Part shown: positions 20,391 to 63,500 of the stretch, piece after piece | Position numbering within the stretch: position 1 is the first letter of the stretch | Layout: every line of letters begins with the position of its first letter | NCBI GenBank assembly: GCA_028023455.1 | Contig: JAQFVV010000002.1 | Coordinates: 9,238,001 to 9,302,000, forward strand | From: Epiperipatus broadwayi | Lineage: Eukaryota > Animalia > Onychophora | Reading direction: 5' to 3' | Length of the DNA: 64,000 bases | Notes under the pieces: generated by a model | The model's database searches: none | The model's input: the letters and a program-made list of their open reading frames with translations, nothing else | What the model was told of the DNA's origin: nothing | Program-made: the position numbers and the translations under genes

Positions 20391-20432
20391 CCAACTGATG
20401 GATGCTATTTCAGCATGAAATTTGCATCTTGG
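20391..20432 (+). ncRNA. Degenerate minimal type I hammerhead ribozyme, copy C
   Basis: ccaa CTGATGG atgcta ttt cagcat GAAA tttgca tc ttgg. Confidence 0.7.
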
Positions 20433-24840: not shown

Positions 24841-24852
24841 CTGATCAGATCA

Positions 24853-24900
24853 GCAACACCTGGAGAAGAGGGAAGAATAAGACCTCTCGAAATATTGTGC
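24853..24900 (+). ncRNA. Hammerhead-like core in the PLE 3' end (mirror copy at 21040-21087, minus strand)
   Basis: CTG(G/A)AGA-agaggg-loop-cctct-CGAAA in the right arm; CTGAAGA...TGAAA in the left arm. Stem I/III partner and cleavage triplet not resolved. Confidence 0.45.
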
Positions 24901-34473: not shown

Positions 34474-34751
34474 TTGAACAAAGGAATCAAGAATAGAATG
34501 AATCCATCTACTCTTGGTAATTCTGATGTTTATAAGCATACCTTTATCAACATTGTTGATAATTTAGAGTGAAATTAATTTATTAACAGATAGAATATGG
34601 TACTTAAAAGTTATTAAATTCACAATTACTTATACAAGGTTGGAGACAGCATCTCACTCTGAATTACCAATAACGTTGACAAAAGTATGCTTATAAACAT
34701 CTGAGCTACCAAGAATAGGTAATTCATTCTATTTTTGATTTGTTTGTTTAA
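34474..34751. repeat. Fold-back with ~100-bp diverged arms and an ~80-bp spacer
   Basis: 34474-34573 (gaatagaatgaat...gatgtttataagcatac...agagtga) is the reverse complement of 34653-34751. Confidence 0.85.
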
Positions 34752-37700: not shown

Positions 37701-38446
37701 TTTAACATAATTTTATTATGTTATAATACCCTTCCACAATCTAGAGATCATTTGTAAAATTACAACTACTGACCGACTCTTCCCAATATAAAAATATTTA
37801 ATAACTTTTGAAACTTCTATTATCTATTTATAACCTTCATTTTTGTTTCCTCTAAATATAAATATTGAGAGATGCATTCATTGCTTTATCTGCCATCCCA
37901 ATATGGAAAAAAACTCATATTAAACATCCCCAATAAACAACTATAACACAAACTTAAATGCTGATCACTAAACCCCAAATATTTTGGCTTTTTAATAAAA
38001 CTAAACTTAGGATCCTTGCCCATAGTACACTGCTATAGATTTAAAGAACACAAATTTAGAAGTTCAGTATACTTTTTATCACAAAAATATTGAAATAATA
38101 ATTAACTCAGTGAACATAGATTTTGTGAGCAGCTAATCTTTGTTTTCAATCATCTCTTTCTTTCTGTGCGGATTTCCTCATTGTATACCTTCTCATGAAT
38201 GATATATCAAATACTAAACAAAAATTGTTTTTCCAAAATCACATTTCTTTTGGTTCTTATATGTTTTATATATCACAATCTCTAATAGGAATTTATTCTG
38301 TCTTTTCCACACACATTCTCATATATACAACACCATTTTTTTTTAGAAATTTTGAAAGGGTTTGCTTATTTGTAAATAAGACAATTAATCAATCTTAATT
38401 TATATACATTATATGATACATGAATATCTGTATGGTTATATATATA

Positions 38447-39242
38447 TATAGACTTTCAAGGCTCCTTTAATCTATCCATTCTTTCTCATGCAACTGATAC
38501 ATAAGATCAGCTACTTGTGAAAAAAAAAGATCTCCATTACACATATTTTGTGATGAACCAGCATTCATTAGTTGGTCCAGATCATCATCTACCATACACA
38601 TATATAATTAGTGCTCAGTTTATATTAAGAGAGCAAATCTTCAAACTTTAATGGACAGACTTCAATCTACTCCTCCTTCCAACTCATCAGCCATCCATAG
38701 CATTGAAAATCTGATTATAGAATGTCCAATTCTCTTGTTAATGCTAATATTGTCATGTTCATGTTGACTTTAAATCAGTCTGACCCCTCATGTATAGGAT
38801 CTTTGTCCATTTAAATACATTTGTAATACATTTAAATATTACAAATTCAGCCTGTATCTTCTCCAGCCCTCTTCTGTGTATTTAAATGGTGAGATCTTAC
38901 ACATGCAGGATCAGACTGACCTAATGTTAACATGGGCATGACAATAATATTAGCATTAACAAGGAATCTGGACATTCTATCATCAGATTTTCAATTATAT
39001 GGATGGATAAAGAGTTGGAGAGTGGAGTAGATTAAAGCCAGTCCATTAAAGTTTGAAGATTTGCTCTCTTAATATAAAGTGAGCACTGATTATATATATA
39101 TGTGGGGGGGGGATGATCTGGACCAACTGATGAGTGCTGGTTCAGCATATTGGGGATTATTTATTCTTTTCACATGTATGTGGTCTTATGTCTCGATCAT
39201 ATGAGATAGAGTGGATAGCAGAAGTGAGATTGAAAATCTATA
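38447..39242. mobile_element. Fold-back element with ~370-bp arms, each containing the same hammerhead family as 19.7-20.6 kb
   Basis: Arms 38447-38820 and 38877-39242 are inverted. Cores at 38534-38575 (-: ccaaCTAATGAatgctggttcatcacAAAAtatgtgtaatgg) and 39123-39153 (+: ccaaCTGATGAgtgctggttcagcat, GAAA segment deleted, then ttgg). Confidence 0.85.
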
Positions 39243-41829
39243 TTCAAATACCGTATATTACACCTAAACTCCCGAGTTAATTATTTTTGTATTTAAATAT
39301 TATGTATATATAAAATGCCAATGATGCAATTTAATTTAAAATTTATACATGTGTGAATGAGAATGGCATAAATGTGTTTATTCATTTATCCTTTTCAAAA
39401 CAAATATTTATTTAAGCACATAAAGAAAGCATTTCGTAGTTTTTCTTAGATTATTATTGATTAAGAATCATTTGAGTATTTATAGAACTATTTATTACTT
39501 GAAATAAGCACTGTTTATACATACCTATGATACAATTTAATTTAAAATTATATGTCAATAAAAATAATTAACATAAAAATAAAATAATGTAGCTATGAAA
39601 AAAATTATAGTAATAAGCTGAGAAAAATAGATTAGATTCATATTTACTCAAATCTATTCCTTTCATGGTTAAATCGGTTATTTTTATTTTATCATATAGA
39701 ATTTCCATCATCATTAACTTAGAGCTTTGGACCATATTTTAAAAATATTTATTTAATAATTTATGGAAATAATACAAGAAATATATTAACTGTGAATGCA
39801 ATCATATGATAGACTGAATATATTCTGGATTCATGACATCATTCGTGTAGGCATGTGCACACCAGAAATCTATAAATTCAAGTTTATAAATTTGTAAGTT
39901 TTTCAATTTTTATTATCTTCAAACTGCAGAAGGCAGAATTGTGGATACATAAAAGACAACTATATTACAAAGTAATTTTTCTTAAATACTAATAGTGAGA
40001 AAAATAACCCACATTTATTCACTGGATCATAAAGTTTAATTACCTATAGCAAATATGTTTCCTAATCCCAAGAGTTTTTAGCATTCAGATTTTGAGATTT
40101 AAATTTTAGTAGTGCAGTTTTTCAATATGCTCTTTTCATACTCAAAATAAAAACAATCAAGATATTTATAAAATTATATAATCCATCTTTCCATTGAATA
40201 AGGCCTAGTATAGTTCATTCATAAAATGTTATAGTTGTTGAACTTGATAAATCAGTGAATATTTTTTAGTTCTGAGGATTTATGTTTTTTACTTTTTTAA
40301 TCTGGAAGTTATAGGTTTCATTATATTATCATAAATTTGATCACATCCTTTTATATAAAGATATAGTAAATTTTGGAAATCACATATTCCTCTTCTTTTT
40401 TTTTTGTTGACACATATAAATTTCAAAAATTTTTATGTAAAAAAAAAAAAAACAACTAATTTTTATTTGGATAAATCAAAAAATAAAACTTTTTTTTTGC
40501 TTTCGCCAGTACATAAAAAAGGCATCTGTTTTTAATATAAATATTCAACATAATCTCCAAAAAACTATATATAGTATTGGTTCATGTTGTTGATTTTATC
40601 TGAGATTTTAGTTGTTTCTAAAGTCATTTATGTAACACCCCCATTATCAATTTACATGAATTGTTTTACTACATTCAAACATTTTTGAACATTCATAATT
40701 TTTGTTTATTTTTGCCATCACAAATTATGATGTCTTCTGATCATAAAAATTCTAAATATGACATACATCCAATAATATTATACCAATAGTGCTAGCAATA
40801 CTGAAAAATTATATACAGATAGTAATATAAAGAGTGGCAGCTGCTCCACAAGCATTGTGGCATCCCCCAAAAAATTAATTATTAAATTTATTCTTGAAAA
40901 ATCAATATATATATATAACAATTATTCAATATTTTACATAATTATTTTATGTAAATAAAATTAATTAAACCATTTTTAAAAATAATTATGTAAATGATAT
41001 TTGAGATTTTATTCAAAAATGTTACTAATTATAGCAGTTCCAGAAATCTCATATTCAATAAATTTCAGAAAGTTTCACTGAGATTGGTTTGTTTTTTTCA
41101 ATACTCATAACTAATGCCATTGGGTGCTTGTTCTGGCAGAATCAATAGCTATTTGAGCATGGTATGTTTATTCTGATTTCAGAATGAATAAATTTTTTAT
41201 TGTTTTCATTTAGGATGAACAATAAAATATTATTTTCTTTTTTGTACTTAACATTTGTAAATTAACATAAATATTTATTGCAGAAAAATATACCAAAATA
41301 AAAAAAATATTACTTTAAATATTTTATCATGATAAGGTTAGTTAAAAATTATATTTTTCCATTTGTCCTTACGTGAAAACATTGAAATGAAAAATAAAAA
41401 TCAATCTACTTCAAATATTATTATTTATCAAATAATAGTTAGTAAAATGGTTATGTGGTTGCAAAATTAGAAATGCTTTGTGTTTTCCTTGTTTACTTTT
41501 GGTGACGATACTGTAATAAAGCATCCTTGCTTAAAAATTTCATGGACCACCTCTGAATATAAACTTGTTCAGTTCTAATTATATTGTGTTAGTGATAATT
41601 AAGTGAATGACATTTGCACTTTAGTTAGTTTTATTTAACAATTTGCTATTATTACCCACCACCATTATTTATGGACACATCATATTATTAAAAGTAAGAT
41701 TAGTTAATGTATGTTTCTAACCTATTTTATATATTTAAGATATAAAATGTATTGATTTTTATTTATGCCTTGACAATTGTATAAAAAATTGCAAATTTCT
41801 ATTCAAAAAAAAAAATTTACTATACACAT

Positions 41830-44011
41830 TGTAAGGATGGCTTACAACCCTATCCTACCATCCTATGTTAACCCATAATACCAATTAGAGCCATGGAAAA
41901 TATTTGCTTAACCAATAAATTGCTAAGCACATACTAGTATTTTTTTTTTAATGCACATATATACAATAAACCTCTTTTTTTCTTGTTAAAAGCTAAAACA
42001 CTAAATCACACAACAACTTAATTTTAATAAAAAGGGTTATAAAAATCATTAAACTATTAAGTTAAACACCTAAAGAAAAACCAGTCAAACATATATGTAT
42101 GTTGATACCAAAGTTAAAGACTCGTGGTGTAAGTCATTAACTAGACTACTACAATAAGTAAGACATTTAGACTGTGAGGTGAAAAAAAAAAAAATAATGA
42201 CCTGATCTAAAAGCAATCACTTAGCAACCAACTGCTGAAACGAAATTAAATCTTAAATTAATGATTGTTTTAATCACAAATACTGTAAATAAAGTCTGCA
42301 TAACAATAGGAAATCATATCATATAAGGAAATGAGCTGATCTCGTTTTTAAACCGAATGTTATATAAAAGGGATTCAAATCTTTTTTTTTTTTTAAAAAA
42401 AAAAAAAAGTAATACTCTTGCTAAACAAAAACCAACTTCATTGTGCATAAAATTCGAATAATAGAAAGCTGGGCATATGTATTCTAAATGCCATGGATTT
42501 TTAAATGATATTCATGCAAATGGGAGCTAAATTAACAGTTGGACTGTCAGTCAATAAATAACCACATCAATTCGAATAATTTTTTTTTAGGAAGCAAGAA
42601 AAGTGAATCATTGTTAACAACTAAAAAGGCAAAAAAGTAAATAATTGCTCTTTATATACATACTCATTATTAAATTACAAATTGGAACTATATAGTATTC
42701 ATTATTATATGATGCATTCTGGTTAAAGAAAAAAATATCAAAGGGTGTCCGAACAACACACGAGCCATGAAAGCATAGTGACATCATCTGTTTATTGCTG
42801 CAAAGAAGCCTGAAACACATCCATTGTCTTCTATAAGATGCTTATACATCACTACATCTCATGCCAAGTGTGAGAATGCCACTCTTTGAGGAAACAGTAT
42901 TCTATCTTTTCCAGGGAAGCCTATTTTGAAAATAGTGGACTAATAATGTGAAGGACATTTTCAGCAGACTCATTTGGACTTTAACTAATATGATTAATTG
43001 AGAACTTTGATTTTTTTTATTTTCTATTATCATTGTTATATTTTTTTTCATTTTCTTGCTTGGAAGCAAAGATGTTTGAAATTTTGGGGAAATTCATTTT
43101 AAGAGTATAAAGGGGGGGGGTGAATAGATTAATTAGGTATTGTTATTATATATTAAATAAAATTTAGGTTGACTTACCCTTCCATCAACTTGACAGTGAC
43201 ATATTAATGTAGGGTAGAACAAAAGGTAAGATTTTGGTTATATCCTATATTAATTACGTATACTAGATACAGAACAGAGTTCATGTTAATTATATATCAT
43301 TAACATATACTAGATACAGAACAGAGTTCATGTTAATTATATATCATTAATTAATATTTGTTATGTGTTTCTTTTCATTTTTCTGTATAGCTGATTAACA
43401 ATCTTATGTGAAAGCTTCTTTTCTATCAATATTAGAGACATCTATAAATAGAAAGAGCTCCCAAGAAGATTTACCACCATCAGCATGAACTGGACAATGA
43501 GGATCACTTATAAGAATGATTCAGCCAGTTAGGTTCATGATTGTGTAAATATTGTTATATATATATCTTTGTAAACTATTTGGTGCCAAGTAGTGAATTT
43601 CTATTGTGGTTTTCTAAAAGAATTTTTCATTATTTTTAATTCGTAATATGGTAGAAGCTCATCCTAGACATGCTCGATTATATAATTTAGAATTGTTGAA
43701 CCATTGTGTGTTTTTTTTATTTTGTTATTAATAAATGTTAAAGAATTTGTTACTTTATCTGGTCTCTTGCCTACCATTGTATCTTACTTATCATCATATT
43801 CCCTGAGGTTGAATACTGTAGTATAATGGAGCCAGGAAGGGGTCAGAATTGGATGAACTAACCCAAATGTGTCTCAAAATTATACTTCGAGCTAGTCTAT
43901 TGAAAGTAGACACAATCATTAATTATGTATTTCATCGTGTGATCATTTGTACCCTATCCAAAGATCCATGTGCTCCCCTATCTCTTCTGAGTAATCCCTC
44001 GGCCCATTACA
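41830..44011 (+). repeat. 5' LTR (2182 bp), containing a private ~49-bp tandem duplication near 43258-43350
   Basis: Starts tgtaaggatgg and ends cccattaca; colinear with 47033-49609. Confidence 0.9.
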
Positions 44012-44769
44012 TTTGGAACCAAGCATATTGGGCATGGAATTAAGTTTTCAGATACTCAGTTGTTGAACTTATAAAAAAAAACTATTTTTTTTTCTTTTGA
44101 ATCTCCTTTCCCATAAACTTTTGTAATGTAATCACCATTAACTTACATATATACTATATGATTGATACATGCGACCACAGCATTGATGAATGTATCTAAC
44201 AATCCTTTTTTTAAAAAAAATTACTTCGAACAGATGTAACAAATGGAAATTATGCCTAAAATAATGAATGTATGTTGAAAAATATAAATAATGAAATGAG
44301 CCGAGACCAATAATGAAATACTTAATCAGTGAATAAACTGAGGTTAAAATAGATGAGCCAGGGAAAATAAAAGACAAGGCTATAAAAATAGGCAATAAGA
44401 AGCATGAACATACAAGTGCACACACACACACATTAAAAAAAGTCCACATTAAATGCAAATACAAAGGGTGGCAAATCAAACATATCTTAATTTTTGAGCA
44501 AATTTCGTCAATGATAACTAGAAATAGGAAATATTTATTAAACATGGAAAGAAAGCATTTACTTGAAACAGAGAGCAGTAATTGTGAAATAGGAGATGGT
44601 ACGGATAGTGGTGAGAAAGAATACTCATTTAGCCAAGTACCTGAGGGCTATAACAAACATTTTCCACAGGTTCAGGAAGGGAGCTAGGCAGCTTTGCAAA
44701 CTCAAGAGACCCCTTCCACTGAACTCAGTCAACTACCTCGAGCTGATATAGCATAGGCTACAGAGAATG

Positions 44770-45900
44770 AGATGACCATGATGTAAATGTTCCAAGCAAT
44801 GATGAAAGAAATGAGGGAAACATATGGACAAAACAAAATAAATAATAATATGAATGAATAATATGAAATATACCATGGCAACCAGAGAAGATGAATAAAA
44901 TAAACAGTAACATAGAAACAAAGATGGAGATTGAAAATAGACTTTCTGTGGATATGAAGCAGCTGTCTTTAGGCTTAGAGGGTGTTCAGCAAGACATTGC
45001 TGACTGAAAACAAGCTGTGAGCAAAATAAGGAAAGATATAGATGAAAAAGACATGAGATGTCAACAGAGACTGGAAGACATCAAAAGCATTATCACCAGT
45101 TAACTAAATGCTAAACATAGTGAAATGCAGTGAGTTGCAAACATTTTCAGGAAGAAATACATACTGAACAAGTAAACATCAAGATAAGATTTAACCTGCA
45201 GGATAGATCGAATCCATTCCCAACTAAATGCTGAAGCAGAAATATGTGATTAAGGCTTTTGAAACTATGAGTTAGAGTTTGAGACATCTGGAAGATAAAA
45301 TAGCCTCTACTGAATTGGAGACCTTCCTGAATAAGATAAATTTAGAAAGAGTAATTGAGAGCATGAAAGAGGTTCAGGACCACATGGACAAAGCTGTCAA
45401 TTACAGATTTGAAATGCTCAAGTCCCAACTACACAAAGAGCACAAAGAATTGGGATGCTACATACTGAAATTGATAAAATAGCTCAGACTAATAAAGTGA
45501 ATAGCGATGACTTAGGGAACTGTATTGTTGCCCACTTTCAAAGACCCAGATAAAATGAGCAACCAATTCAAAGAACAATACTTGCTCTAGGCAAAGTTTG
45601 CAAATATGGTGATAGCCTTCAGAGTGAATCACTGTTAACACATGACTGCCACCATGAAAAGCTTTCATAACCACAACATTGGTTCAAGAAGTTCAGATAA
45701 AGGCAAAAGATCTGACCATCTCAGATGTTTGTTGTGGCATTTAAAATCTCTACTATCAATGAAATGATCCAGATAAGGGAAACTTGGAACATGGTAGAGA
45801 AATCCACACCAGAAACCACTAAACAAAAGGATTCCCAGTTCTGTAAGCTATGCAATACATATGGAAGTCCCTTCACATTCATTAAGCATAGAAATTCTAC
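44770..45900 (+). pseudogene. Decayed gag-like region (coiled-coil N-terminus, capsid-like segment)
   Basis: Heptad-rich fragments EIENRLSVDMKQLSLGLEGVQQDI and RHLEDKIASTELETFLNKINLERVIESMKEVQ, plus FKDPDKMSNQFKEQY; located after the PBS. Confidence 0.5.
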
Positions 45901-46239
45901 TGCTTGAAAAACAAATATAAGGGATGAACCTCAAAGATTGCAACATGTGGAATGAGATATATATATATTTACACACAAACCAACCAATGATGTCATGAAC
46001 AGAAGAAAAGAATGTTCATTAACAGATAGGGCATGAGTAGATGCACCTATGCTTTTTACTAAGCCACAATATATGGCCATCCAACCAAACATGATACTAC
46101 CCAGTCAAATAGCACCAGAGTGGGATGTACCATAATATGTTTTAAAAAGAAAGGAATATACATAGATAAGACAACCAATGAGTAAAAAAACTTCCACTAC
46201 AATATTCTCCACATATCAACCCCCAGTAAATACCACTGA

Positions 46240-46490
46240 AATAGATGTAGACAAAGAAAGATTAAAAGCATATGAAAAACTCTCAAATATGACTAACCAA
46301 AGAAACAAGGATAGGAAAAAGAAAAGATCTCATATTTTCAGAGTATAAGATGAAAACACCACATGCCATAAATTTTTTAATCAATATGGACCATTTACAA
46401 TAGTAAAGCAATCTGGTCACAATGCATTTTGGATTGATGTTGGAGAGATATGGAGTACATATAATGCCCGTATCTTAAAATGTATTATGG
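46240..46490 (+). pseudogene. C-terminal tail of a gypsy-type integrase
   Basis: KAYEKL...IFRV*DE then HKFFNQYGPFTIVKQSGHNAFWIDVGEIWSTYNARILK, matching the GPY/F module and YNxxxLK end. Confidence 0.65.
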
Positions 46491-47032
46491 ACTCCACATA
46501 ACCATATAGTTGCCTTGTACAATCCACAATCCAATCAACATCAAAGAAATATATGGGTGATTATGCAAAATATGTGCATCACTAGGGATATTAAGTTTTG
46601 ATGAGGGTATACCCAGGTTAATGCTTAGAAGCATTGTTGACACTAACCAAGATCCAAAAAGTCAATCCGTATAGAGAATAATGAATGCTCTAATATTTTG
46701 TTAGACCAAAAAATCCAGTAAGACTCGAAAAGGAACAGGGTGAAGGCTAACAAAAACTTAAGTGTCATCTACAATAGAGACACATTACCAGTTAATTATT
46801 TATCTATATAACCATCAAAACCCCTAATTCCATGCCTTAAATGAAATGACCTAGCAAAATTGTGAAATAGCACAAGAAATTAACTGATAATATATAATGA
46901 ACATTGAAGTGAACTTTTAAAACCCTTAATTTAAACCAAACATGATCCAACATCAAATAGACTCCTACTCATGTGAAAGTGTTAAAATTTTAATCATAAG
47001 TTAAAATTTTAACCCTGAAAAGAAAGGGGAGT

Positions 47033-49609
47033 TGTAAGGATTGCTTTCAACCCTGTCGTACCATCCTATGTTAGCCCATATTACAATTAGAGCTATAGAA
47101 AATATTTGCTTAACCAATAAATTGCTAAGCACATTCTAGTATTTTTTTTAAAATGCATATATATACAATAAACTTTTTTCTTGTAAGCTAAAACACTAAA
47201 TCTCACAACTTCATTTCTTTTAATAAAAAGGGTTACAAAAATTATTAAACCATTAAGTTAAACACTCTAAAGAAAAACCAGTCAAACATATATGTATGTT
47301 GACACCAAAGTTAAAGACTTGTGGTGTAAGTCATTAACTAGACTAGGACAATAACTAAGACAGTTTAGATTAGATGCAAAAAAATAATTATCTGATCTAA
47401 AAGCAATCACTTAGCAACCAACTGTGGAAATGAAATTCAAACGTCAATTAATGATTGTTTTAATCGCAAATACTTTAAATAAAGTCTGCATAACAATAGG
47501 AAATATAAGGAAATGAGCTAATCTCATTTTTAAACTGAATATAAAGAATTTGAAACTTCATTTTTTTTAAAAAAAGTGATGCTCTTGCTAAACAAAAACC
47601 AACTTTGTTGTGCTTAAAATTCGAATGCTAAAAAGATAGGCATGTATATTCTAAATGCCACAGATTTTTAAATTATATTCAAGCAAATAGGAGCCAAATT
47701 TACAATTGAACTGAATCAATAAATAACCACATCAATTTGAATAAATAAAGTTTTTTTTTAAGAAGCAAGAAAAATAAATTATTGTTAACAACTCAAAAAG
47801 GCAAAACAATAAATAATTGCTCTATATAAAGGCACTTCACACCTGGGAGCTTAATTGTAAGTATAGAGGATTTGATAATCTTTTCTACATGTGTATGGTC
47901 GTGTGTATCAGTTGTATGAGATAGTGTGGATAGTTGAAGGGTGCTTGAAAATCTGAGTTCAAATCCTCTATACTTACAATTGCTCTATATATACATACTC
48001 ATTATTAAATTATGAATTGGAACTTGATAAAATGCATATATAGTGTTCATCATTATATAATGCATTCTGCTAAAGAAAAGAATATCATAGGGTGACTGAA
48101 TGCCATTAACAGATCCATAAAAGCATAGTGACCATCTGTTTATTGCTGCAAAGCCTGAAAACCTGAAAAACACCCATTGTCTTCTATAAGATTTCTACAC
48201 ATAACCCAAGTGGATATGTTATCTGGACAAGATTGTGATATCATCATGCCAAGTGTGAGAATACCTCTCTTTGAGGGAAGAGTATTTTATCTTTATCCAG
48301 GGAGGCCTATTTGAAAATAATCGACTATTAGTGTGAAGGACATTTCCTGCAGACTCATCGGACTTTAACTAATATGATTAATTGAAAACTGATTTTTTAT
48401 TTTATTTTTTATTATTGTTATATATTTTTATTTTCTCATTTGGAAGCAGAGATGTTTGAAATTTTTGGGAAATTTATTTTAAGAGTATAAAAAGGGGGGA
48501 AGTAAATAGGTTAATTAAATATTCTAATATATTATCGAATAAAATATAGGTTGACTTATCCTTCCATCAACATTACAGTGACATTAATGTGGGATAAAAC
48601 AAAAGGTAAGATTTTGGGTATATCCTGTATTAATAACACACACTAGATATTGAACAGAGTTCGCGTTAATTATATATCATTAATTAATATTTGTTATGTG
48701 TTTCTTTTCGTTTTTCTGTATAGCTGATTAACAATCTTGTGTGAAAGCTTCTTTTCTATCAATATTAGAGACATTTATAAATAAAAGGGGGGGGGGGGCT
48801 CCCAAGAAGATTTACCACCATCAGGATGAACTGGACAATTAGGGTCACTTAAATGAGACTGTAAATAGGAATGATTCAGCCAGTTAGGTTTGTGGTTACG
48901 TAAATATTGTTCTATATATATATCTTTGTAAACTATTTGGTGCCAAGTAATTAATTTCTACCATGGGTTTGGTAAAAGGATTTTCATTATTTAAATTCAT
49001 AATATGATAGAAGCTGATCATTGATATGCTCCATCACATAATTTAGATTGTTAAACCATTGTTTTATTTTATTTTTCTTTATTTTGTTATTAATAAATAT
49101 TAAAGAAGGTGTTATTTTATCTGGTTTCTTGCTCATCATTATTAGCTTGCTTATCATCATTATTCTTATTATTAAAGTTACAAATATATTGATTAGTGCC
49201 AATTGATGTGATAATCTTAAATATATAAATACATGCACACACCTGCCTTATTATATATGTTATGATATAGGAGTATATTAAATGAATTTAAATAACCAAT
49301 TATCATCTATAGAGAAATATAATTGTTGCTAATTAGTGTAATTTCATTCCTTGTTAAGACTGTTTAAAGCATTTACTCTAAGTTTGAATACTGTGGTATA
49401 ACAGAGCCATGTAGGGGTGAGAACTGGATGAACTAACCCAAATTGTGTCCAAGTTAATAAAAATACACAGAACTAGTCTATTGGAAGTAGACACAATCAT
49501 CAGTTATGTATTTCATTGGATAACCATTTGCATGCTACCTGAAGACCCAAAGTCGGACCATAGTCAGATGTGCCCCCCTTTCTCATGTGTAACCCCCCAG
49601 CCCGTTACA
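47033..49609 (+). repeat. 3' LTR (2577 bp) with secondary insertions at ~47829-47977 and ~49150-49380
   Basis: Starts tgtaaggattg right after the PPT and ends cccgttaca. Confidence 0.9.
47829..47977 (+). mobile_element. 149-bp insertion in the 3' LTR with a 14-bp TSD; related to the sequence downstream of the 39.1-kb hammerhead
   Basis: aattgctctatata at 47815-47828 and 47978-47991 (a single site in the 5' LTR); internal ...atgagatagtgtggatag...ttgaaaatct resembles 39165-39240; B-box-like gagttcaaatcc; 23-bp inverted repeat. Confidence 0.75.
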
Positions 49610-49950
49610 ATATGTACATTACCTTTTCTTCTCAAAGACAATCAGACTTTTTGTTTTGCTTCATTTTTTTATTATCTATTAACACATCAAAAAAAAGTTT
49701 AACAATGTGTTTAAAAAAATATATTAAGCTATCAGTAAGCTTTTTTTTTTTTTTTTAGTAAAGATGGCAAACTAGTGTCTCTTTATCATAGTCAGTCCAA
49801 ATACTACAACATAATATCCTGCTGCCTTGACATTTTTAAAATTATCCAAGCTATTTGAAACAGACAACATATAAACATATACATATGAGTATGGGATAAA
49901 ATGCTGAAAGTCTGTTTAGTTACTTTTGAAAAGTTTGAAAATTTATATTA

Positions 49951-50105: not shown

Positions 50106-52690
50106 GTAACGATAATAAACTATTATAAACAATATTTTAATCCACATAAGTATATTCTGTTAATTTCTTAAACCTATCTCAACTGCAATTAAATTCAAAA
50201 AACCAAGCAGCAGCAAATGTCATCAATTCAAATCCTATAAATTCTATATTTTAATGTTAGCAAGATGTTCAATCCCAGGGTAGTATGCATTGATTGCAAG
50301 TTACTCATCCACAAGGCAACTTTGTTAGTATTATTTTTCCAGTTCTATAGCACATATTGGCAGTCTAAAATAGCTATTTTTTCCCTCCTATCAGTTAAAT
50401 ATTTAGCATTGGTCTAAGACCACATCTTGACTACTAGGGTTAAATCTACATTGGCTTGAGCTTATTTATGCACTCACACTTCAGGTAAAAAAATATAACA
50501 TTTATGTAACACTGTAATGGATAATCTATCCTGGGCTAGTAAGGTTACTTATAAAGTAGAAAACCACAATGTTAAGGTAGGAGTTGGCATATTAATTGTA
50601 GGCATAATCTTAAGTGACCACATATATACACACTCACATTTAGTTTAGTATGTAAAGATGATAATGCTCTAATATTTCAATATCATCCGCCATGGGGCCT
50701 GCATGCATTCACCCACACATTTGAAACTGTGTTCTTTTTATTTGTTTTTTGTCTTTATTAATTAATAAATGTATTTAAAATTATGCTGGTTTCATATGTC
50801 TTTCTTGCTCATAGTCTAATTCCATTTCAATTTAATCTCTATTTAGTAAATTATGTATGAGTGATATGCATTCATGTTAAATTACAAATATTATCTCCCT
50901 TTATCACACTGTATCAGTCCATTTTAACCCTTAAAGTTAGTATTATATTTAGTCACCCCCTGAGTCTGATGTTTCTCCCTGTGTTATGCCAGCCATGAAG
51001 AAATTGGGACCGAGTATAACTTCAGAGATGTCATTTATAAGATGTTAAGTCACAGAATTTTGGTGAATGAGATGAAGCTTGGTCAGATTCGGAATCTCAC
51101 CATATCACTCTGGTCAGCTTTGGTATATTTGCCTGAATTCTGGATTTTGTTGTGTGAATGCACAAATCTGACTGTTACAATATATAGCAGTAGCAAATAT
51201 CCAGACAGTAGTGTGACCCAGTACAAGTTTAGTAATCAATAGATACAGGGAGGTTTTTGCATAAAATCCCTATCTAGTGCCTACTCATCTCCTATCCTCA
51301 GATTAGTTTGTAGCTTGTGTCTTTCATCAGTGAGAAGTTTTGGATCTGAGAGCACTGCATCTGGATCTAATGCAACCCTCAGCAGCCACCTTTTGCCTAT
51401 TTACCTGCATTCATTGATTACTAAAGCTTGCACTGTGTGGCACTACTGTCTGGAGATTTGCTATTGCTAATAACTTGTGGAAGTATCAGAAATGGTGATC
51501 ATGTGATGTTTTGTTGGTTTATATATATAAATGAGTGTATATTAAGTCACTAAATATAGAGGATTACAATATTTAAGAAATAATAAATAATAAAATGTAA
51601 AATTTAAAAAAGCACAAAAAATCAGCCTAAATAGAAAAATATATATATTAATAATGTTTTTAAGGAGTGAATATTATCTGAAGAATGAAAGGTGTAGATA
51701 GTACATTAGCATAAGAGATATAAGGTATTGAAAAAATGAGAGAAATAAATTAATAATAATCTCATTTAATTGATTTTGAACAAATTAATCTAAAAACAAG
51801 TTTTTATTTAATCTATGATTAACTATTTGATGGACTCATTTTATAGTGAGAAAGTTATTGTTTGTGAAGACAAAAAAAAAGAATTTGGGCAACTAAAATG
51901 GAATTATTGTGCAATGATAATAATAAGAATTGTGCTAGCAATAGCTAATAATATGATTTCTCAATTTGGACAGTTATGAAAAATACCCAACCACCTCCCA
52001 TAAATGAATCTACCATTATCAATGATTAATAGTCGCCAGATTCATTACCATAAAAAAATAAATATAAAAGATTCTATTTAATTGTGATTCTAGTGCAAGA
52101 CAAAAACACAAAAATTGGCTGCATTATGCATCTTTAAAAAAACCCCCGTTGAAGGTTACAAATTACCAATGTGACAAAGAAAGGAGTTATTAGCAGTAGT
52201 ATGACAGAGTAGACAGAAGACGATGGGGTACTCTCTTTTGCTTTCCACTTTATGTAATTATTTAATATGTTATATTAGTTTAACATTACTAAGTACTGTA
52301 CATCATTTATGTTTTTTTTTATTTAATTTATTTTTGAAATTTATTGTCAATAATAATTCAAAATTTTATCAAACCATATTCATAAATATTGAAAAGGAAA
52401 ATTATATTGATATTTCTAAATTAATCTTATATTTAATTGCATTTATTTTCTAAAACTTATCACAAAACCATATCTCTTTAATTAAGCCCAAAAAGTTTTT
52501 TTTAACACTTCAGAATTAAATACAGTAAAAATTTATGTATGTATATTATAATATTGTTGAATATTTGAATGTGTTTATATATGTTAATTATACAATTTGA
52601 AATTCATTAAGAAAAAATAATGAATTTTCTTTAAATAAATATATTAAAGTTTTTATTTGCTTTTAATATAAATATTTTTTTTATTTTCAG

Positions 52691-52790
52691 TTAATCGATT
52701 ATGGAAAGCGTTACCTTGTAAAATTACAAGTTTTTGCCAAAATGGAGGAACCTGCACTTATTATGAATCAATCAATTCACATGTATGTCA
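52691..52790 (+). CDS. vn: Internal exon encoding Cys1-Cys4 of an EGFR-ligand EGF domain, vein/neuregulin-like: NRLWKALPCKITSFCQNGGTCTYYESINSHVC(Q)
   Basis: Strong acceptor ttattttcag and donor GTAAGT. C-x5-C-x-NGG-x-C-x10-C spacing as recalled for insect vein. Phase-2 intron between Cys4 and Cys5, the known hallmark of EGFR-ligand genes. The Ig-domain exon and the Cys5-Cys6 exon were not found in the window, so orthology is inferred. Confidence 0.7.
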
Positions 52791-55700
52791 GTAAGTATTT
52801 GAAAAATGTGAAACTTCCAAAAGTTAGTAAATTTAAAAAGTTGACTGTTTATATTTTACTTTTAATATTTATTTATTTGAATTTTTAAAAAAAGTTTTAT
52901 ATAAACTGAAGTTTTTTATAGAATATTGTATCCTTTTGAAAATACCAGGTCTAAAAATTGAAGTAATTAGATGTCTCTCTCTCTCTCTCTTTATATATAT
53001 ATGTATATTGTATACTATAAATAGAAAATAAACACCTTTCTGCTTGTAGGACTGGTTATTCATTATCGAAAAGTAGCATATGTTTCCAAATTAGCTAAAA
53101 TATAGGAATTTTTTGTTAAGTATACAACAATCTATAACACATTTAACAAATATAGTTATATTTTAATGAAAGATCTGATCAAATCTTGTATTGAAATCCT
53201 TTTTTTTTTTTACCAATCATTTTAAATCTTTCTAGAAATGTTAAAACTATATTTTAAAGAATTAATAATAATAAAAAAAGAAGATAGATATTGGAAAACA
53301 GAATCAGAAACATTTTTATTGTTTTTCTGATTGCAGGACCAAAAAAAGCAAATGATTAAAAAAAATTAATATCTGTAGAAATAATGAATAGAGATTTCAT
53401 TACATTTTCAAAATATATAGATATTGTTCATGCACTTGAAATAATATCATTTTTAAATGATTTTCAAAAAAGGAATAAGATTAATATTTTGTTTTTTAAA
53501 TATAGAAAATTACAAGAAAAATTATAAATTAAAAGTAAAGATAGCAAATATAAAAAACAAAAAATACTCATAACTTATACATTTTAGTTTTTAAAAAAAA
53601 ACATATATTGGAATAAAATGGAAGTAATTAAAAATGAAAATTCTCAATATCTTTGTCAATCAATTATTTTTTCACTTTTAAAACTATTTGATACAGAGTG
53701 GCAGCACACACATTTTAAATTAAATTATTAAATACTGAAAGCCAAATATAAATCATAGAGAAATGATGTAAAAAAGTGAATATTTGACCATAGCAAATTG
53801 GCACAGTGATGTCTCTAGTTTACATTCAATTATTTTCACTTGCAGTTAATCTCACATCATTCAATTCATGAGACATTCATATAATTAATAAGCACTGACT
53901 AATAATGCCAAATTTTAAGAGACCCAATATAATAAATCCACTTACCATTTCCATCATCTAAAATTTAAGAGATATTTTTGTCGTATTTTTTTGCCTTAAG
54001 TCTGGACCAACATGGAAATATGCTCTAATGGAAAATTATTACCTAATATCAAATTATTTTAATGGATGTTTTCCTCCAAAATATCTGTTTTCCTTGAAAT
54101 ACTAAGAAAATGTACTTAGAAAACTTTTTATCAAATATAGATGGACAGTATTTTGAAGGGATTTTGAATGATTTACTTTTATGCTATATGGAGTACAGCA
54201 TAGAGAGAAAAAAATTTTTGTTGAAACTTTTTGTTGTTAATAGAAATAGCGCAAGCTCTTTTTTTTTTCATTGGTGGAGCTGGAGGAAAGAAAGCCAACA
54301 AGAACTTTACTTAGCTTTAAATTTTATTATTTTTCTATATTTTTTTAATATTCATATTTTTAGAATATGCAATTTAATATATTCTAGAAATAAGCTCAGT
54401 TTTAAGATTTAAATGATTTATTTTTAAATAAAGAAAAATAATAGGTATCAGAAAAATTTAGTTTTTCCGAAAGGTAAATATAAAAAAAATACCTATAACT
54501 TGTTATATGTTTGTATGACCATGAAGAGAGTGGAATCACCATATTTAATTCCAATAATTGTTGGGATTAAAGGTAAATTATTATGCCATTTAATAATATT
54601 TTAATGTATATTTTGTTTGTTTATTATATTACTTGATTATTAAAACCAGATGGAATCATGTTTATATGATTAAGAATATGTTGTCTTCTGAATGTAATAG
54701 AAAGTTAAAAAAATACTGTGTGTTGTTTTCTGAATGCAAAATACCATGTGTGTTATCTAAAGGTATTTAAATAATTTTATGAATGCTTAAGTATGCACAT
54801 CTTTAAATATAATTAGGAGTTACCAAGATATCATTCTAGACAGTATCTGTTTAGATACAATAAATGAAAATGCTGATCTCTGAATTATTTAATATGATAA
54901 TATAAGTGAATGAATGTGTGATAAAGATGGATTTTATGAAATCATTTGTGTATACAATGTTTTTGCACCTTCTTGATTTTAATATTAGATATTATTTTAA
55001 AATGTAGTTTGGTGATTATTTTATGTAAAGTAGTCAGAATTTATTTGTGATGTCAAGAATGTGGAAGATAAAGGATAGTCATCTGGGAAATTAGTTTTAA
55101 AACAAAATCCTGGGTGATAGGGATATTGAGTAGAAATATATTTGAATTATATTTTCACGAAGTAATGAATTAAATACAGGTAACAAAGTTCATGACCGGA
55201 ATTTAAGGTACATGATAAATATGTGACTATAAACACTGCAACCATGATATTTCATATTAGTTTGAGTTATTGTTATATTCATATCCCTCACTGTAATCAC
55301 TATTGATCACCACTGGATATTACATCATGAATGGTACAGTTTAAAAGTTGGTCAGAACAATCGCTGGACTGTAGAAGATTGTTAGTATTTATTAATGCAA
55401 GAGGACAAAAATTTTATCACAAATGATTTATATTGTTTTTATGGGTAAAGATAAAAGGAATGGTTTGATATTTCTAGAGATATATGAATAATGGAGATTA
55501 TTAAACTGATATGTTAAATGCATATTTTTGTTTGAGTGAAAGATAATGGAATACAACATCTAAATGCTATTATGATGATAGATATTGAAATAAATAAATA
55601 AAGTATATTCAAGCAATATATAATTATTTAATATCTGAATATTTTATAAGTAAAGTGAACTTAACAAAAATTAAAGTTATGGAGTTATTTAAGTATTTTA

Positions 55701-56559
55701 TAGCAAATAACTTATAAAGTATAAAGGAAGTTATTACATTATATTTTCTTTATTTTCTTTTATACTAGAATATTAAAATATACTTAAAAGGTAAAGGTAA
55801 ATACTTTTGTTGGTATATAAACGATATACTTAGTATCTTAAGGATAATTTTATATGTTGAATTTTTAATAAGTATTAAACTTAGTTTAAATTTATAGTAT
55901 TGATAGGCATTACTATAATAATAATTTTCTTTTGGAAATATGAAGTTTACTATAGATATAAATGATAATGTAAGTAACTTGTATTCATTACTGTTAATGT
56001 TTTATTTAAGTATGATAGTGATGATGGAATATTGCTATCACAATTATAATCTCTTATATAATTTTATACAGTAAAGTCAAGAGTGAAGGGTATTTAATAT
56101 TTTATTATTTTCATAGTATCTCTTATGTAAATAAATATATTAATTTAATTAAGTTTTTGTTGTTATTTTGTAAATGTTAAAATTTTATAAATTTACATTT
56201 TTTGTAAATTTAAATATGTTGTTAAATAATAAAATTGTTAATGTTTTTTGTAATTCATATTGTCTTAAATGTTTTTTTGTTTGATGTGTCCAAGTGTTCT
56301 TGAATCTTTGTATTCACACATATGAGTTATAAAAATTATTTGTATCATTATATTACTGCACATGGTTAACAAGAATATATTATTACAATTATCATTATTA
56401 TTATAGAAGAGTTTATTAAATTTGCTAATTATGAAGATTATATAACACCAATTTTTAAAATTATCTAATATTACAATTATATTAAGAGTATGATGTTTCT
56501 GTAAATGCCACATAAGAATAAAAGATTTTATATCATAATATGATATACAGTGTTTTAGA

Positions 56560-56900
56560 ATTTATTAAAAATATTCTATATGGTGTTTTTATAAGAATTT
56601 ATAATGTTATTTATGTTTATTGAAGAGTAGTAGTTGAGTAAATGTATTATTTTAAGAATCATGAAAATATTCTAGTTGTTCATTATTGTTTTGGAAGAGT
56701 AGTTGAATATATGTAAAATCCCTCATTACATTTAGCTACGTTGTATTAATTTGTTTATCATTATTATTAGGAAATGAACCTGAGATATTGAATAATTATA
56801 AGAGTTAAATGAAGTGATGATGGATTGGAATTTTTAGTTAATGTTAAATTTAAATATTATCTTTCATGAAGAAATAGCAATTGCTTTATTGTTTCATAAT
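56560..56900 (+). pseudogene. Decayed SF3 helicase (NS1-like) domain; mirror copy at ~57925-58280 on the minus strand
   Basis: Two-arm consensus reads FIKNILYGVF..NVIYVY[decayed Walker A, reconstructed as G.SS.GK]YYFKNLENILVVHxCFGRVVEY..CIN..III..NEPE (Walker B)..GKEFLANVKFK (B')..CFIVS(N) (motif C). Order and spacing resemble densoviral NS1, but frameshifts are needed. Confidence 0.5.
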
Positions 56901-57406
56901 AAATTTTATAAATTATTTAATTAGGATTTATTTTATGTGTGTTGTGAGCAATGAGAATATTACAAGATAGTTTATTTATATAAATAAATTATGGATAATA
57001 TTTTTATGCCATTGATAGTATATCTTTCGGGATACATTCTCAATGTTAAACCAACAATGTACCTCGCTAAATGTCTCATGCAAAGTTTCATAATTTTTTT
57101 GTTAGTATTTTAATCAAACCATATTTTAGTAGTAAATAATGAGCTAGTCATAGTTTAAATTGTTATTATAATAAATGATTTTTGAATCCAATTTGAAATT
57201 TAGTATTTAATTTATGTGTTTTGACTTTCTTAGTTTATTATTTAAATAAGATAAATTATTGAAATATTACTTTGTTAGATATAGTATGTTAAAAATGCAT
57301 TCTGAGTTAAAGTATTGCTTTAATAATAAATATTGTTTTAATAATTCAATTGTGATTTGAAATATAATAGCTAGAGTTTAGCTGGAGAGTTTTCCAATGT
57401 TAGCCA

Positions 57407-57536
57407 GAATGAATCTAGGTTAGCTTTAATTCGGTAAGGGTATAGTGTTAGTGGGTTTTGGCATCCAACACATGGTGTCAAGACCCACTAACACTGAACC
57501 CTTGCTTCCTTACTATAATAAGGAAACTCACCAAAT
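57407..57536. other. Branched hairpin at the axis of the large palindrome
   Basis: 30-bp stem 57436-57465/57474-57503 with an 8-nt loop; 7-bp stem ttcctta/taaggaa at 57506-57525; GC-richer than the arms. Confidence 0.85.
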
Positions 57537-60500
57537 GGCTAACATTGGAAAGACTCTCTGGCTAACATTAAACCATTACCCATCAAATCACAATTGAATT
57601 CTCAAAATAATATTTATTAAAGTAATACTTTAACTAGCTCAGAAATGCATTTTTAAAAATAATATATCTAATAAAATTAACATTTAAAATAATTTATCTT
57701 ATTTAAATAATAAACTAAGAAAGTCAAACACATAAATTAATTATTAAATTTCAAATTGGATTCCCAGCTCATTTATTATAATAACAATTTAAACTAAGAC
57801 TGGATCATTATTTATTACTAAAATATTATTCAAATAAAATAAGTGCACTGTTGTTTTAACATTGAGGATGTATCCTGAAAGATATATTCTCATGGCTCAC
57901 AACATAAATCCTACTTAAATAATTCATAAAATTTATTATGAAACAATAAAGCAATTACTATCCCTTCATTAAAAACAATATTTAAATTTAACATTAGCTA
58001 AAAATTCCTTTCCATTATCACTTCATCTAAGTCTTCTAATTATTCAACATCTCAGATTCATCTAATAATAATGATAAACAAATTAATATAATGTAGCTAA
58101 ATGTAATGAGGGATTTTACATATATTCAACTACTCTTCCAAAACAACAATGAACAACTAGAATATTTTCAAGATTCTTAAAATAATACATTCACTTAACT
58201 ACTACTCTTCAATAAACATAAATAAGAATATAAATTCTTATAAAAACATCATATAGAATATTTTTAATACATTCTAAAACATCTTATATCATATTATGCT
58301 ATAAAATCTTTTATTCTTATGTGGCATTTACAGAAACATCATACTTTTAATATAATTATAATATTAGATAATTTTAAAAATTGATGTTATATAATCTTTA
58401 TAATTAGCAATAATAAGATCTTCTACAATAATGATGATAATTATAATAATATATTCTTGTTAACCACATGCAGTATATAATGATACAAGTAATTTTTATA
58501 AATCATGTGTGTGACTCCAAAGATTCAGAAACATTTGGACACATTAAACAAAGAAACTTTTGAAACAATATGAATTCCAAAAACATTAACAAGTTTATTA
58601 TTTAACACCATATTTACATTTACAAAAATATAAATTTATAAAATGTTAACATTTACAAAATAACAACAAAAAATAATTAATCAAATTAAAATATTTACAT
58701 AAGAGATACTATGAAAATAAAATATTGAATAGTTTTTACTTTTACTATTTGCTATATAAAATTATATATGATATTGTACATTATAAGAGTAATACCATTA
58801 CGATCTTTTATACTTGTGATAGTGATATTACATCACCACTATCATACTTAGATAAAACCATAACAGTAATGAATACAATTTACTTACATTATCATTTATA
58901 ATTTATATTTTGAAACAAAATTATCATTATAGTAAAGCCCATTAACGCTATAAATTTAAACTAAGATTAATACTTATTAAAATATAACATAAAATTATCC
59001 TTAAGATACTAAGTATATCACTTATATACCAACAAAGTATTTACCTTTACATATATTTTAACATTCTGATATAAAAGTAAATAATAAAAAAGTAGTTAAT
59101 GAAATAACTTCCTTCATAATTTATAAGTTATTTGCTATAAAATACTTAAAATAACCCTATAACTTTAATTTTTGTTAAGTTCACTTTACTTATACTATAT
59201 TTATTTATTTCCATATCTATCACTATAATAGCATTCAGGTGTTGTATTCCATCCACTTTCTCTCAAACAAAAATATGCATTTAACATTTGAGTTTAATGA
59301 TCTCCATTATCCATATATCTCTAGGAATATCAAATCATTTGTGATAAAAGTTTTCTTTCCTCTTGCATTCACAAATACTAATAACTTTTTGCAGGCCAGC
59401 TATTATTCTGACCAAGTTTTAAACTATATTATTCACAATGTAATATCCAGTGGTGATCAATAGTGATTTCCAGTGAGAGATATGAATACAACAATAACTC
59501 AAACTAATATGAAATATCATGATTGTAGTGTTTAAGGTCACATATTTATCATGCACCTTAAATTTCAGTCATGGCTTCTACCTGAGCTCTTACTGAACTA
59601 TGGAAAGAATGTAACTGACCATGTATTAAATATACAGAACTTTGTTACCTTATTTAATTCATTAATTCACAACAATATAAGTCAACTATAATATTTCTCC
59701 TCAATATCCCTATCACACAGAATTTCATTTTACAACTAATTTCCCAGACCACTACATTCTGAATACTTCTCTTGATATCGTGAAGAAATTCTAAATATTT
59801 TACATAAAATAATCTCCAAACTATATTTCAAAATAAATATCTAATATTAAAATCAAGAAGTTCAAACACATTGTATACACAAATGATTTCATAAAATACA
59901 TCTTTATCACACACTGATTCAATTATATTATAATATTAAATAATTCATAGATCAGTGTTTTCATTTATTGTATCTAAACAGACACTGTCTAGAATGATAA
60001 CTCATAATTATATTTAAAAATATACATATTTAAGCACTCATAAATGATTTAAAGAGCTTTAGATAACATACACAGTATTTTCTATCTTTATATTACAATC
60101 AAAAAATAACATATTCTTAGTCATATAAATATGATTCCATCTGGTTTTAATAATCAAGCAATATGCATAATAATTTACCTTTAATCCCAACAATTATTGG
60201 AATTCAATATGGTGATTCCATTCTCTTCATAGTTATCCAATCATATAACAAGTTATAGGCATTTTTTTAATCTTTTACCTTTCAGAAAAAATAATAAAAT
60301 TTAAAGCTACATAAAGTTGTTGTTGGTTTTCTTTCCTCCAGCTATGTCAATAATAAAGATCTTGCACTGTTGCTATTAACAACAAAAAAGTTTCAACAAA
60401 ATTTTTCTCTCCTCCAGATGAACAAACTTCCTAAGACATAAAAGTAAATCATTCAAAATCCCTTCCAAATACTGTCCATCTATATTTGATAAAAAGTTTG

Positions 60501-63500
60501 TCTAAGTACATTTTCTTAGCATTTCAAGAGAACAAATATTTGGGAAGAAAACAACCATTAAAATAATTTGATATTAGGTAATAATTTTCTAATAGAACCT
60601 TTTTCCATACTGGTCCACACTTATGGCAAAAAATATAACAAAATTAATATCTCTTCAAGAAGCATTTGTATACTTTATAAAATAACACCAATAATTATTT
60701 CATTCATTTTTATTAAACAATTTTCATTTAAATTCATTTCCACATATATTGATAAATAATTTGTAATGTAATCATAATAATTTATAAAATAAGTTTCTTT
60801 TGTTTTAAATTTCAAGAATTTTTCTTTTCAGATGTGCACATTCATTAATTAATTTCTTGCAAGTCTTTATACTTTCTTCCATCAGATAATAACATATTCA
60901 AAACTTAAAAGAATTTTAAAATATTATTAAAAGTTCATTTTCTCTTTAATGTATCAATCCTTCAATGAAAATTTTATGAAAACACGTTTTTTTTTCATTT
61001 TCCACACATGATTTTTAAAAAATATATTACTCATTCGGGCTGTTTTTTTCTTTTTAAAACAAATTACTATCAAAAACATTTTCACAAATGCATTCACAAA
61101 TAATTAGTATATATATATGTGCTCTGCGCACAGATAATGAAGCTATTAATTGTCTATGAATTTATTAAAATTTACCGCCAAGCACTTTCAGGACAGTTTA
61201 TAGTTTCATATTCATGGTGACTGTATTCAATTGATAACTATAATATCAATGCAAATTTTATGCAGATGTTACGTGGACCATTTTCAAGATAGGGAAGAGC
61301 ACATACATATACTAATTTACTTTAAGCGTTAATGAAGTAAAATCTTAACTATCACAAATAATATAAAAATATATGCCCATTTATAAAGTTCCATCACACA
61401 TTTATTTTATTTGCATAATGTCATTTATCATTCTTTCTTTTCTTCCTTTTAAAGAAAGAATAACTTTTCAAATAGCTTTTGATAATTATCCTCAACATAA
61501 TAACAGGACATAAATTTCACAAAAGTTTATATTTATGAGAATTTATCATAATTGCTAAATATAAATGTTCTCTCATTTCATTCATACAAATAACATTAAA
61601 TAAATAGTTCTTACAACTCCTTAGGTTTTTCTTGAATATATGGTTACAAATTTTATAGCTTGTTCTTTGCATCAGGTCACTGATTAGATAACAACTATTG
61701 GTCTCCATAAAGTTATCACAGTTTCGTTAAGCTTCGATATGAAAATTTACTGACAGGGAATTAACTTGTTTACCCAATTATAGGATACATTACACTAAAT
61801 TGTTTAAAATTATACTTTTAACTTTACTAATAAAAAAAATATTTTATAAAAAAATTAAAACTTTACTTGAGTAATTTGATTTTAAAAAATTGGTTTAGAT
61901 TTAGACTGAAATTAAAATAGATTTAAAGACTTAACACACATACTTATATCTTTTTTTATCTAGTTATTTCACTGGCTAAACCCAGTTATTCTTAGACACT
62001 AATTTACATATCAGTTACATCATTGTCTACAACTTATTTTCTAAAATAATCTAATTTAATTATATTTTATATTATATAAAATTTATTTAATATTTTATAA
62101 TATAAAATATCTTTATTTAAACATTAAAATATTTTTAATAATCTGAATATCAATTTAAAATAGAAAATATTAGTTAGACAAGTCAATAAAAATTAATTGC
62201 TACTTTTAAAATAAAAATTATAAAAATTAATATTTCTGACTAAAACATGTAAGCTCAAGGACAAAGACATATACTTTCAAGACATTTGACACTATTTTAG
62301 AAACATTCTAGAATAGCTAAATAATGGTTATTTAAAATAATAACTTAAATAAAATTATTTTAAAACATATTAGAAAAATTATATAATATTAAATATTGCT
62401 AATAGAATATTATTTCAACATTATATTCTTTAAATATAATAAACATTAAATAATTATATATTTCAAATAATAAATTATATATTACTTTTATCATTAAAAT
62501 TATATTACCACTTTAAAATACTTTGAATAAATGTATTAACTCTTTACCTAACAGGTTTAAGCTTATTTTACAGACAATATCAATACAAAATATTATTGAC
62601 TAATAAAAATTTAATTTTTTTTCAAACTAGCTATTTTTAAATCTTTCTAAAAATGACTATGGCAAATGGCATGGTCACAATATTGTACCATTTTGAAATC
62701 TCATTTGCCTTTATCCATTTAAAAAAATGATACAATATATCTGTATTCATCATGAGCATGAAATGATTTGTACATTTTAAAATGGGAGATCGATAATAAT
62801 TTTCGATAATACCCAGGGTTAAATATAAACGAGTATTTCTTTACTAATTATTAGAGGAAAGAAATTTAATTTCTAAAATCAAAATCTTCCCTTGTTAAAC
62901 TATTTACACTTCCACCCCAATATCTATTTGCCCGGTAGACATTTTCCCTCACTCTTTGCATACCTTTAAAAGATTGTATTAATTTAACAATCCTTAGCAC
63001 CACCCCCAACATAATAAAAGAAAGCAAAAAGTTAAATAATTTCCCTTCCCTATCCGCTGAGAGAGTATGCAAAGAGGTTATTGTACATATGTTTAATTTG
63101 GATGAAGGAAAACTGGGTGAAAAGTATATTATAATTCAACTCCCCGATATAATATCCCAATGGCTAGCTCAAATATAATTCCCCATCTCAGGTACTTTGG
63201 GTAAATATTGCTATAACTTTTTATAGCCATGGTAAGTAGATATTACAAATAGGTGATTGCATTTTATTATTATTTTGCATTATTCTACAATGAATTATAT
63301 CATAAACAAATAAAGTATAAGAGAATATAGTTTATTTAACTAAAAAAAAACTCCACCACATACATTTAAACATTATAATATTGAGTCATAAATTAATTAT
63401 AAGGCTTTCTATTTCAATTTTATTATTCTAAAAAATATTTAAATCCCTATATTCAAAATCTACATTTAGATTAAAAGGAACAAAGAAATAAAATAAAAAA

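Follow-up and report, generated by a model that had tools for sequence, protein, structure and literature searches.

A 6.7-kb palindrome with a predicted branched hairpin at its centre, a member of a high-copy repeat family in Epiperipatus broadwayi

The window analysed here is a stretch of 64,000 nucleotides from the genome of the onychophoran Epiperipatus broadwayi (assembly GCA_028023455.1, contig JAQFVV010000002.1, positions 9,238,001 to 9,302,000 of the forward strand); all coordinates below are positions in the window. Self-comparison of the window identified two inverted arms at 53964-60658, which form a 6.7-kb palindrome (Table 1). In a global alignment of the arms, which took in ~60 flanking bases per side, 2752 of 3087 ungapped columns are identical (89.1%) and 335 differ; there are 73 gap events, and the long gaps lie mostly in the right arm. 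The Kimura two-parameter (K2P) distance between the arms is 0.111, near that of one pair of long terminal repeats (LTRs) in the window (0.12). The arms are 22-23% in GC content, in an AT-rich genome, and contain no internal tandem arrays except short AT-rich rows. The GC skew reverses at the axis, from +0.30 in the left arm to -0.31 in the right arm. Both the inverted arms and the flip in skew had been described in an earlier inspection of the letters alone (the sequence-only reading), and both were recovered here.

The arms meet at a GC-rich centre, for which the same reading had proposed a branched hairpin. Folding of 57340-57620 gave -70.9 kcal/mol with a z-score of -13.9, and none of 200 shuffled sequences was equally stable, in agreement with the proposal. 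A multi-branched fold is predicted on both strands of the centre (z -13.9 and -13.7). As far as predicted structure goes, the centre has the size and shape of a parvoviral branched terminal hairpin (~100-400 nt). A search of metagenomes with the central hairpin pattern returned 0 matches.

Four short-read contig sets (runs) from one sample were mapped to 53700-60900 at an identity of at least 80%. In all four runs, a contig of 419-453 bases runs from 57240 through the hairpin with 0 differences, and the left end is crossed by contigs of 1053-1090 bases. An assembly artefact, already judged unlikely beforehand, is ruled out at the centre and at the left junction by these crossing contigs; none of the listed contigs spans the whole element. 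Per run, 5,991-6,273 contigs were mapped (80-100% identity), including 473-585 at 99% identity or more and 2,560-2,643 under 90%. The summed depth is 365-8,425 in the arm bins, 284-386 at the centre, 92-132 in the left flank and 1,140-1,215 in the right one, compared to 21-45 for individual listed contigs; on the arms it is roughly 100 times the single-copy level. Summed contig depth does not equal copy number, and the copy figures are rough: after addition of the mirrored bins, they come to the order of 100-300 arm copies over much of the length, with fewer at the outer ends, and to under ten copy-equivalents (about 7-10) at the centre. The palindrome is one member of a high-copy family and no lone fossil. 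Contig joints 54349-57329 and 54072-56388 connect outer with inner arm parts, which suggests that some copies have lost internal segments. At 56386 and 58103 the summed depth reaches 17,000-41,000, far exceeding the remaining arm positions, so some short segments may be part of a repeat that is even more abundant.

The relation of the arms to their family was read from the 40 best-supported of 1,641 variant rows; one row outside the arms was dropped, and 5 of the remaining 39 lack an aligned partner. At 26 of the other 34 sites, the letter in the partner arm is that of the family. In 7 rows (6 pairs), of which two are weakly supported and one lies in an ambiguous alignment, the partner arm agrees with the window; in one row it matches neither. 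Because the family letter is found in the partner arm at 26 of 34 sites, most differences between the arms are private changes from a common master, and the pattern is one of star-like decay from a master sequence. The few changes common to both arms hint at sister arms.

Each arm appears to contain the remnant of a long reading frame. In its helicase-like frame, 18 stops within 173 codons are common to both arms, 0 are left-only and 4 are right-only; the three inward frames of 56402-56930 have 18, 15 and 16 common stops, with 0-1 left-only and 0-4 right-only. The expectation from shuffled sequence is 18.4 ± 3.9 stops, and the observed density is therefore random. Stops that are common to the arms at random density indicate that the arms parted only after the gene had died; at insertion the arms were probably identical, copied from a template already unable to code. 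G counts by codon position are 36/24/13 in 56402-56930 and 52/42/25 in 56216-57100, the limits of the latter having been picked after inspection of the data; an equal contrast occurs in 1 of 126 other windows, and 54716-55166 favours the same frame as 56216-57100. As judged from composition, this supports an old gene that once read toward the centre. Coding on the outward strand was ruled out; there is too little G on that strand, and it is the inward strand that shows the periodicity. The old frame has 1 Gln, 1 Pro and 2 Ala in ~176 codons, a scarcity that would fit heavy loss of C from the inward strand, as from single-stranded exposure. The old gene ends ~0.4-0.5 kb before the hairpin, which leaves no space for a capsid (VP) gene; neither tblastn nor cluster profiles gave a VP match, as the sequence-only reading had expected.

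That reading had also noticed a series of superfamily 3 (SF3) helicase-like motifs, reading inward ~0.5 kb from the hairpin. By eye, such a series can be made out ~480 bases from the hairpin; it is interrupted by stops common to the right arm, and it is not significant. Compared to the natural NS1 L010, the spacing in codons is 44 versus 41 from Walker A to B, 22 versus 22 from B to B′ and 17 versus 17 from B′ to C. From Walker B to B′, 7 of 26 positions are identical to NS1 L010; at two of the Walker A-like positions, both arms have a stop. In searches at the sequence level, homology of the old gene to any tested family did not beat chance. Profiles built from 78 and 89 natural Reps of CRESS-DNA viruses and alphasatellites stayed at null level. 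Pfam searches on 12, 18 and 11 read-through frames gave nothing above cut-off, a weak blank because Pfam also misses a recognisable Penelope-like element in the window; a mitochondrial origin, prompted by the skew, received no Pfam support. A word-indexed search confirmed 0 of 30 candidates, a PDB search gave one match at E 1.3 and then 0, tblastn against phage and plasmid sequences gave no match, scans for related loci confirmed 0 of 14, 0 of 245 and 0 of 434 pattern stretches, and an Atlas search with the open reading frame 54098-54409 gave no usable match. Single-sequence structure prediction reached a pLDDT (predicted local distance difference test) of 49.8.

The outer ends of the palindrome are less sharply defined than its centre. 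Beyond the mirrored part, a depth of ~1,150 persists at 60689-60900, contigs link 60528 to 60693, and the strand polarity score continues to ~61000; the joint and the score indicate that the unit may run past the mirrored part. The homologous outer positions given beforehand for the two arms are thus not shown to be natural termini, as depth, joints and polarity continue beyond the right end. Both outer ends start with AAGAGATAT, and arm depth is lowest there. No exact target-site duplication flanks the element; age may have blurred a short one. In a pattern scan the outer ends lacked hammerhead-like cores, and a single weak motif was found, in the centre; no Rfam ribozyme was found, only microRNA-like hairpin matches far below the gathering score.

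Table 1. Positions of the palindrome and its parts in the window
Feature	Position	Strand	Description
Left arm	53967..57406	+	G/T-rich strand reads inward to the centre
Right arm	57536..60655	-	89% identical to left arm; several 28-131-base blocks missing
Branched GC-rich centre	57380..57565	.	41% GC versus 22-23% in the arms
Parts of the centre	~57433-57505; 57506-57525; 57407-57432		Within the closing stem: inner stem; side hairpin; weak third branch
Putative remnant of a long, dead reading frame	54716..57100	+	Codon-position-1 G excess at 54716-55166 and 56216-57100; untraceable between; mirrored in right arm
SF3-helicase-like motif series, by eye	56600..56900	+	Walker A-like ~56620-56640, B-like ~56770, B′-like ~56837, C-like ~56890
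Mirror of motif series	57940..58240	-	Right arm
Possible continuation of unit	60656..61000	-	Depth ~1,150, joint 60528-60693, polarity score; may be another repeat

The palindrome is genuine and uncommon DNA. In the best explanation, which we put forward tentatively, it may be a tail-to-tail dimer of a non-autonomous parvovirus-type replicon that was copied in trans and inserted here. The unit would be 3.4 kb or longer and highly repeated, with its gene already dead before the dimer formed. Its GC-rich hairpin would prime copy-back synthesis, in the manner of parvoviral rolling-hairpin replication, and so yield the mirror copy in one step, and the nicking and unwinding protein would be supplied in trans by a helper. 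From the SF3-like spacing and a layout like that of the Acheta domesticus segmented densovirus (AdSDV), the unit may descend from a nonstructural-gene-only (NS-only) or defective parvovirus-like genome that spread in a burst, replicating non-autonomously; insertion of the dimer would have made no target duplication, and the arms would then have drifted neutrally by ~5.5% each. Parvovirus descent of the unit is plausible but unproven. The palindromic-dimer geometry of the sequence-only reading stands in so far as the arrangement is tail-to-tail with the old gene before a branched hairpin; parvoviral homology was not shown, with tests that are weak under decay.

A number of results weigh against this explanation. 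For SF3/NS1, tblastn, hmmsearch --max and a frameshift- and decay-aware scan gave 9-13.6 bits, compared to shuffled maxima averaging 13-16 bits and a window background of 20-30; composition-driven background peaks near 57000-57090 were disregarded in the frameshift-aware scan. The best local match of the decay-aware scan falls in the expected register, though below shuffled maxima. The control of the scan gave 28-47 bits on intact remote parvoviral helicases, so a remote relative in advanced decay may have escaped it. None of 36 parvoviral ORF (open reading frame) cluster profiles rose above null, and the brevidensovirus NS1 profile stayed at null level. When 56402-56950 was compared by phmmer with 1.84 billion proteins, the sole match was a protein with a 17-fold tandem repeat, which was discarded as an accumulation of noise. 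Neither arm contains an inward-reading H-U-H-U-U motif, whereas 10 of 13 natural NS1 proteins have one; the HUH motif proposed near 55250-55330 is not in the arms, and that site would be ~490 codons from Walker B, compared to 294-321 in natural NS1. Decay could have erased the motif. Natural NS strands are 35-42% GC and A-rich, whereas the arms are 22% GC and T-rich. No helper for replication in trans was seen. Because HUH and VP were not found and the SF3 match is not significant, the element is not filed as a parvoviral endogenous viral element (EVE).

The chief difficulty of a replicon dimer is the scarcity of the centre, whose depth is ~1/20-1/30 of the summed arm depth. According to PMC3187698, rolling-hairpin replication yields tail-to-tail concatemers, and these carry the termini at about half frequency, from which the scarce centre differs. 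It is possible that palindrome centres were lost or that perfect hairpins sequence poorly, either of which would explain this scarcity. The copy estimate itself comes from short-read contigs only.

A palindrome alone is no pointer to a parvovirus here, because the same 64 kb contain other palindromes, one of them Penelope-like. The window holds seven other self-palindromes of at least 80 bases. One of these, at 20974-24949, we take to be Penelope-like from its reverse transcriptase (RT) and GIY-YIG-like motifs. It is 4 kb long and head-to-head, its arms are 84.5% alike (K2P 0.17), and the fold-back lies inside the coding region; hammerhead-like cores are found near both outer ends, at 21080 on the minus strand and at 24860 on the plus strand. 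Its presence indicates that the host makes palindromes by other routes. Two small palindromes, at 19747-20600 and 38446-39243, have an arm identity of 82-86% and a common 46-base motif; it is hammerhead-like by eye, and the hammerhead pattern scan did not list it. Further palindromes or inverted pairs lie at 34418-34807, 2860-2964, 11975-12102, 13733-13822 and 51185-51469, and 2915-3007 resembles 51425-51511.

Fold-back priming during break repair is one mechanism by which palindromes form. The host itself may have made the 6.7-kb palindrome in this manner, from a mostly monomeric dead repeat with a break beside its hairpin. We consider this rather unlikely, though it and a non-viral transposon are close rivals of the replicon dimer; it fits a centre that is 20-30 times rarer than the arms, a right arm that may extend past the mirrored part and the at least seven other self-palindromes in the window, but amplification of the unit is left unaccounted for, and the centre, at roughly 7-10 copy-equivalents (a rough figure), forms a dedicated, GC-rich structure with several branches, whereas the Penelope-like palindrome has a simple stem at its centre. 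Foldback transposons (Galileo, FB) and Polintons have very long terminal inverted repeats and form non-autonomous high-copy families. An origin as a non-autonomous foldback-type DNA transposon with giant inverted repeats, or as a DDE-moved snap-back derivative of a Polinton-like element, would suit the common start of both outer ends and the joints 54349-57329 and 54072-56388, which resemble internal deletion derivatives. Furthermore, right-arm 57990-58022 resembles the second-Asp motif of DDE integrases, not significantly, and is the top match of the integrase profile in the window (10.5 bits, independent E-value 0.05). That test is circular, however, because the profile was picked via this motif; the left arm reads differently at this place, and the first Asp lies at an unsuitable distance. 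Different from Galileo, FB and Polintons, the element has no exact target duplication and no internal tandem arrays, and its outer ends have the least depth instead of the most, which makes such an origin unlikely.

The element may also have been a passenger of the host's Penelope-type retro-machinery, with self-priming yielding the inverted copies. The Penelope-like palindrome in the window gives such a passenger a possible source; in PMC3846280 and PMC8557442, hammerhead-like cores at outer ends like those described above, palindromic junctions of inverted 5′-truncated copies, which are read as self-priming, and movement of unrelated DNA in trans are all described for Penelope elements. Those inverted copies are mostly head-to-head with RT and GIY-YIG, whereas the 6.7-kb element is tail-to-tail relative to its old gene with neither, and its depth falls outward. 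There is no hammerhead-like core at its outer ends and no Rfam ribozyme, no RT, GIY-YIG or pseudo-LTR (pLTR) was seen in the arms (the Pfam part of this blank being weak), and it has no DNA similarity to the Penelope-like palindrome; a passenger origin is accordingly quite improbable. Least probable is the interpretation of the sequence-only reading, in which one replicative dimer, from a functional densovirus-like genome or NS-only segment, integrated and then decayed at its site. The layout and the hairpin would fit, and long arm-to-arm gene conversion could in principle spread stops to both arms; a fossil of a working virus is contradicted by the 18/0/4 stops, at random density, and by the high-copy family, and the arm-specific letters are mostly private relative to that family. 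NS1 and VP searches of the arms by tblastn and profiles, like those for HUH, gave no match beyond chance. Overall, the observation behind that reading is partly confirmed and its interpretation partly supported.

Among known systems, the tentative parvovirus-type replicon has its closest likeness in the AdSDV ns segment, which is Brevihamaparvovirus-related. According to PMC10267136, this segment is 3316 nt long and encodes an NS1 of 796 aa with an SF3 domain, has T-shaped terminal hairpins of 208 and 220 nt and polyA at 2865-2880. The unit resembles it in its capsid-less size of ~3.3 kb, its layout and its branched hairpin; different from it, the unit is gene-dead, integrated, high-copy and dimeric, with no hairpin seen at the outer ends. 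There is no detectable similarity to three brevidensovirus NS1 proteins, AdSDV itself not being among them. Snapback genomes of adeno-associated virus (AAV) are likewise self-complementary and replicate with Rep in trans; as described in PMC8235507, the 5′ snapbacks contain partial rep and the 3′ ones the capsid region. Snapback genomes occur as packaged particles, whereas the unit belongs to an old repeat family in a genome. The nearest described inverted parvoviral DNA in a host, within the literature covered, is an endogenous element of infectious hypodermal and haematopoietic necrosis virus (IHHNV) in the shrimp Penaeus monodon; it has long inverted repeats, at the axes of which lie viral inverted repeats (PMC8982415). 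That element is made up of jumbled fragments, which are found at one or two loci and are ~98-99% similar to an EVE already known, whereas here there is one clean 6.7-kb mirror, the protein is unrecognisable and the family is far more abundant.

A wider claim, which we regard as doubtful, is that a capsid-less, protein-dead, parvovirus-derived replicon became a parasite of an animal genome, where rolling-hairpin replication in trans raised its number to something like a hundred copies or more. Insertion as hairpin-bridged dimers would make it a 'rolling-hairpin' class of non-autonomous transposon. In the literature covered, mostly without subscription journals, no high-copy, hairpin-bridged, protein-dead family of this kind was found. 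If the tentative replicon explanation holds, parvovirus-type hairpin replication can amplify a high-copy genomic repeat, linking EVEs and transposons; the literature covered listed no such case. Even under the rival explanations, this genome has an unusual wealth of kilobase palindromes that come from unrelated elements, and it is a good system for how large palindromes arise and persist; each palindrome could yield long hairpin RNA.

CpG depletion, the Penelope-like and LTR elements and the size of the sequencing runs suggest an animal host whose genome is likely large. Several other features were observed in the window. The LTR pair mentioned above belongs to a likely LTR retrotransposon at 41830-49610, with LTRs of ~2.1-2.5 kb that start with TGTAAGG and end with TTACA (LTR distance 0.12). 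On the plus strand, 52691-52782 is a possible 92-base host exon between AG and GT, and the 6.7-kb palindrome may sit in an intron. Nested inverted pairs at 9695-9870/12208-12378 and 9876-10089/10517-10763 are possibly old DNA transposons. A Lys/Ser-rich open frame of 190 aa, with no Pfam match, lies at 599-1168 on the plus strand. The strongest codon-position contrast in G outside the 6.7-kb element (3.7) is found at ~33025-33910 on the minus strand, a possible coding remnant.

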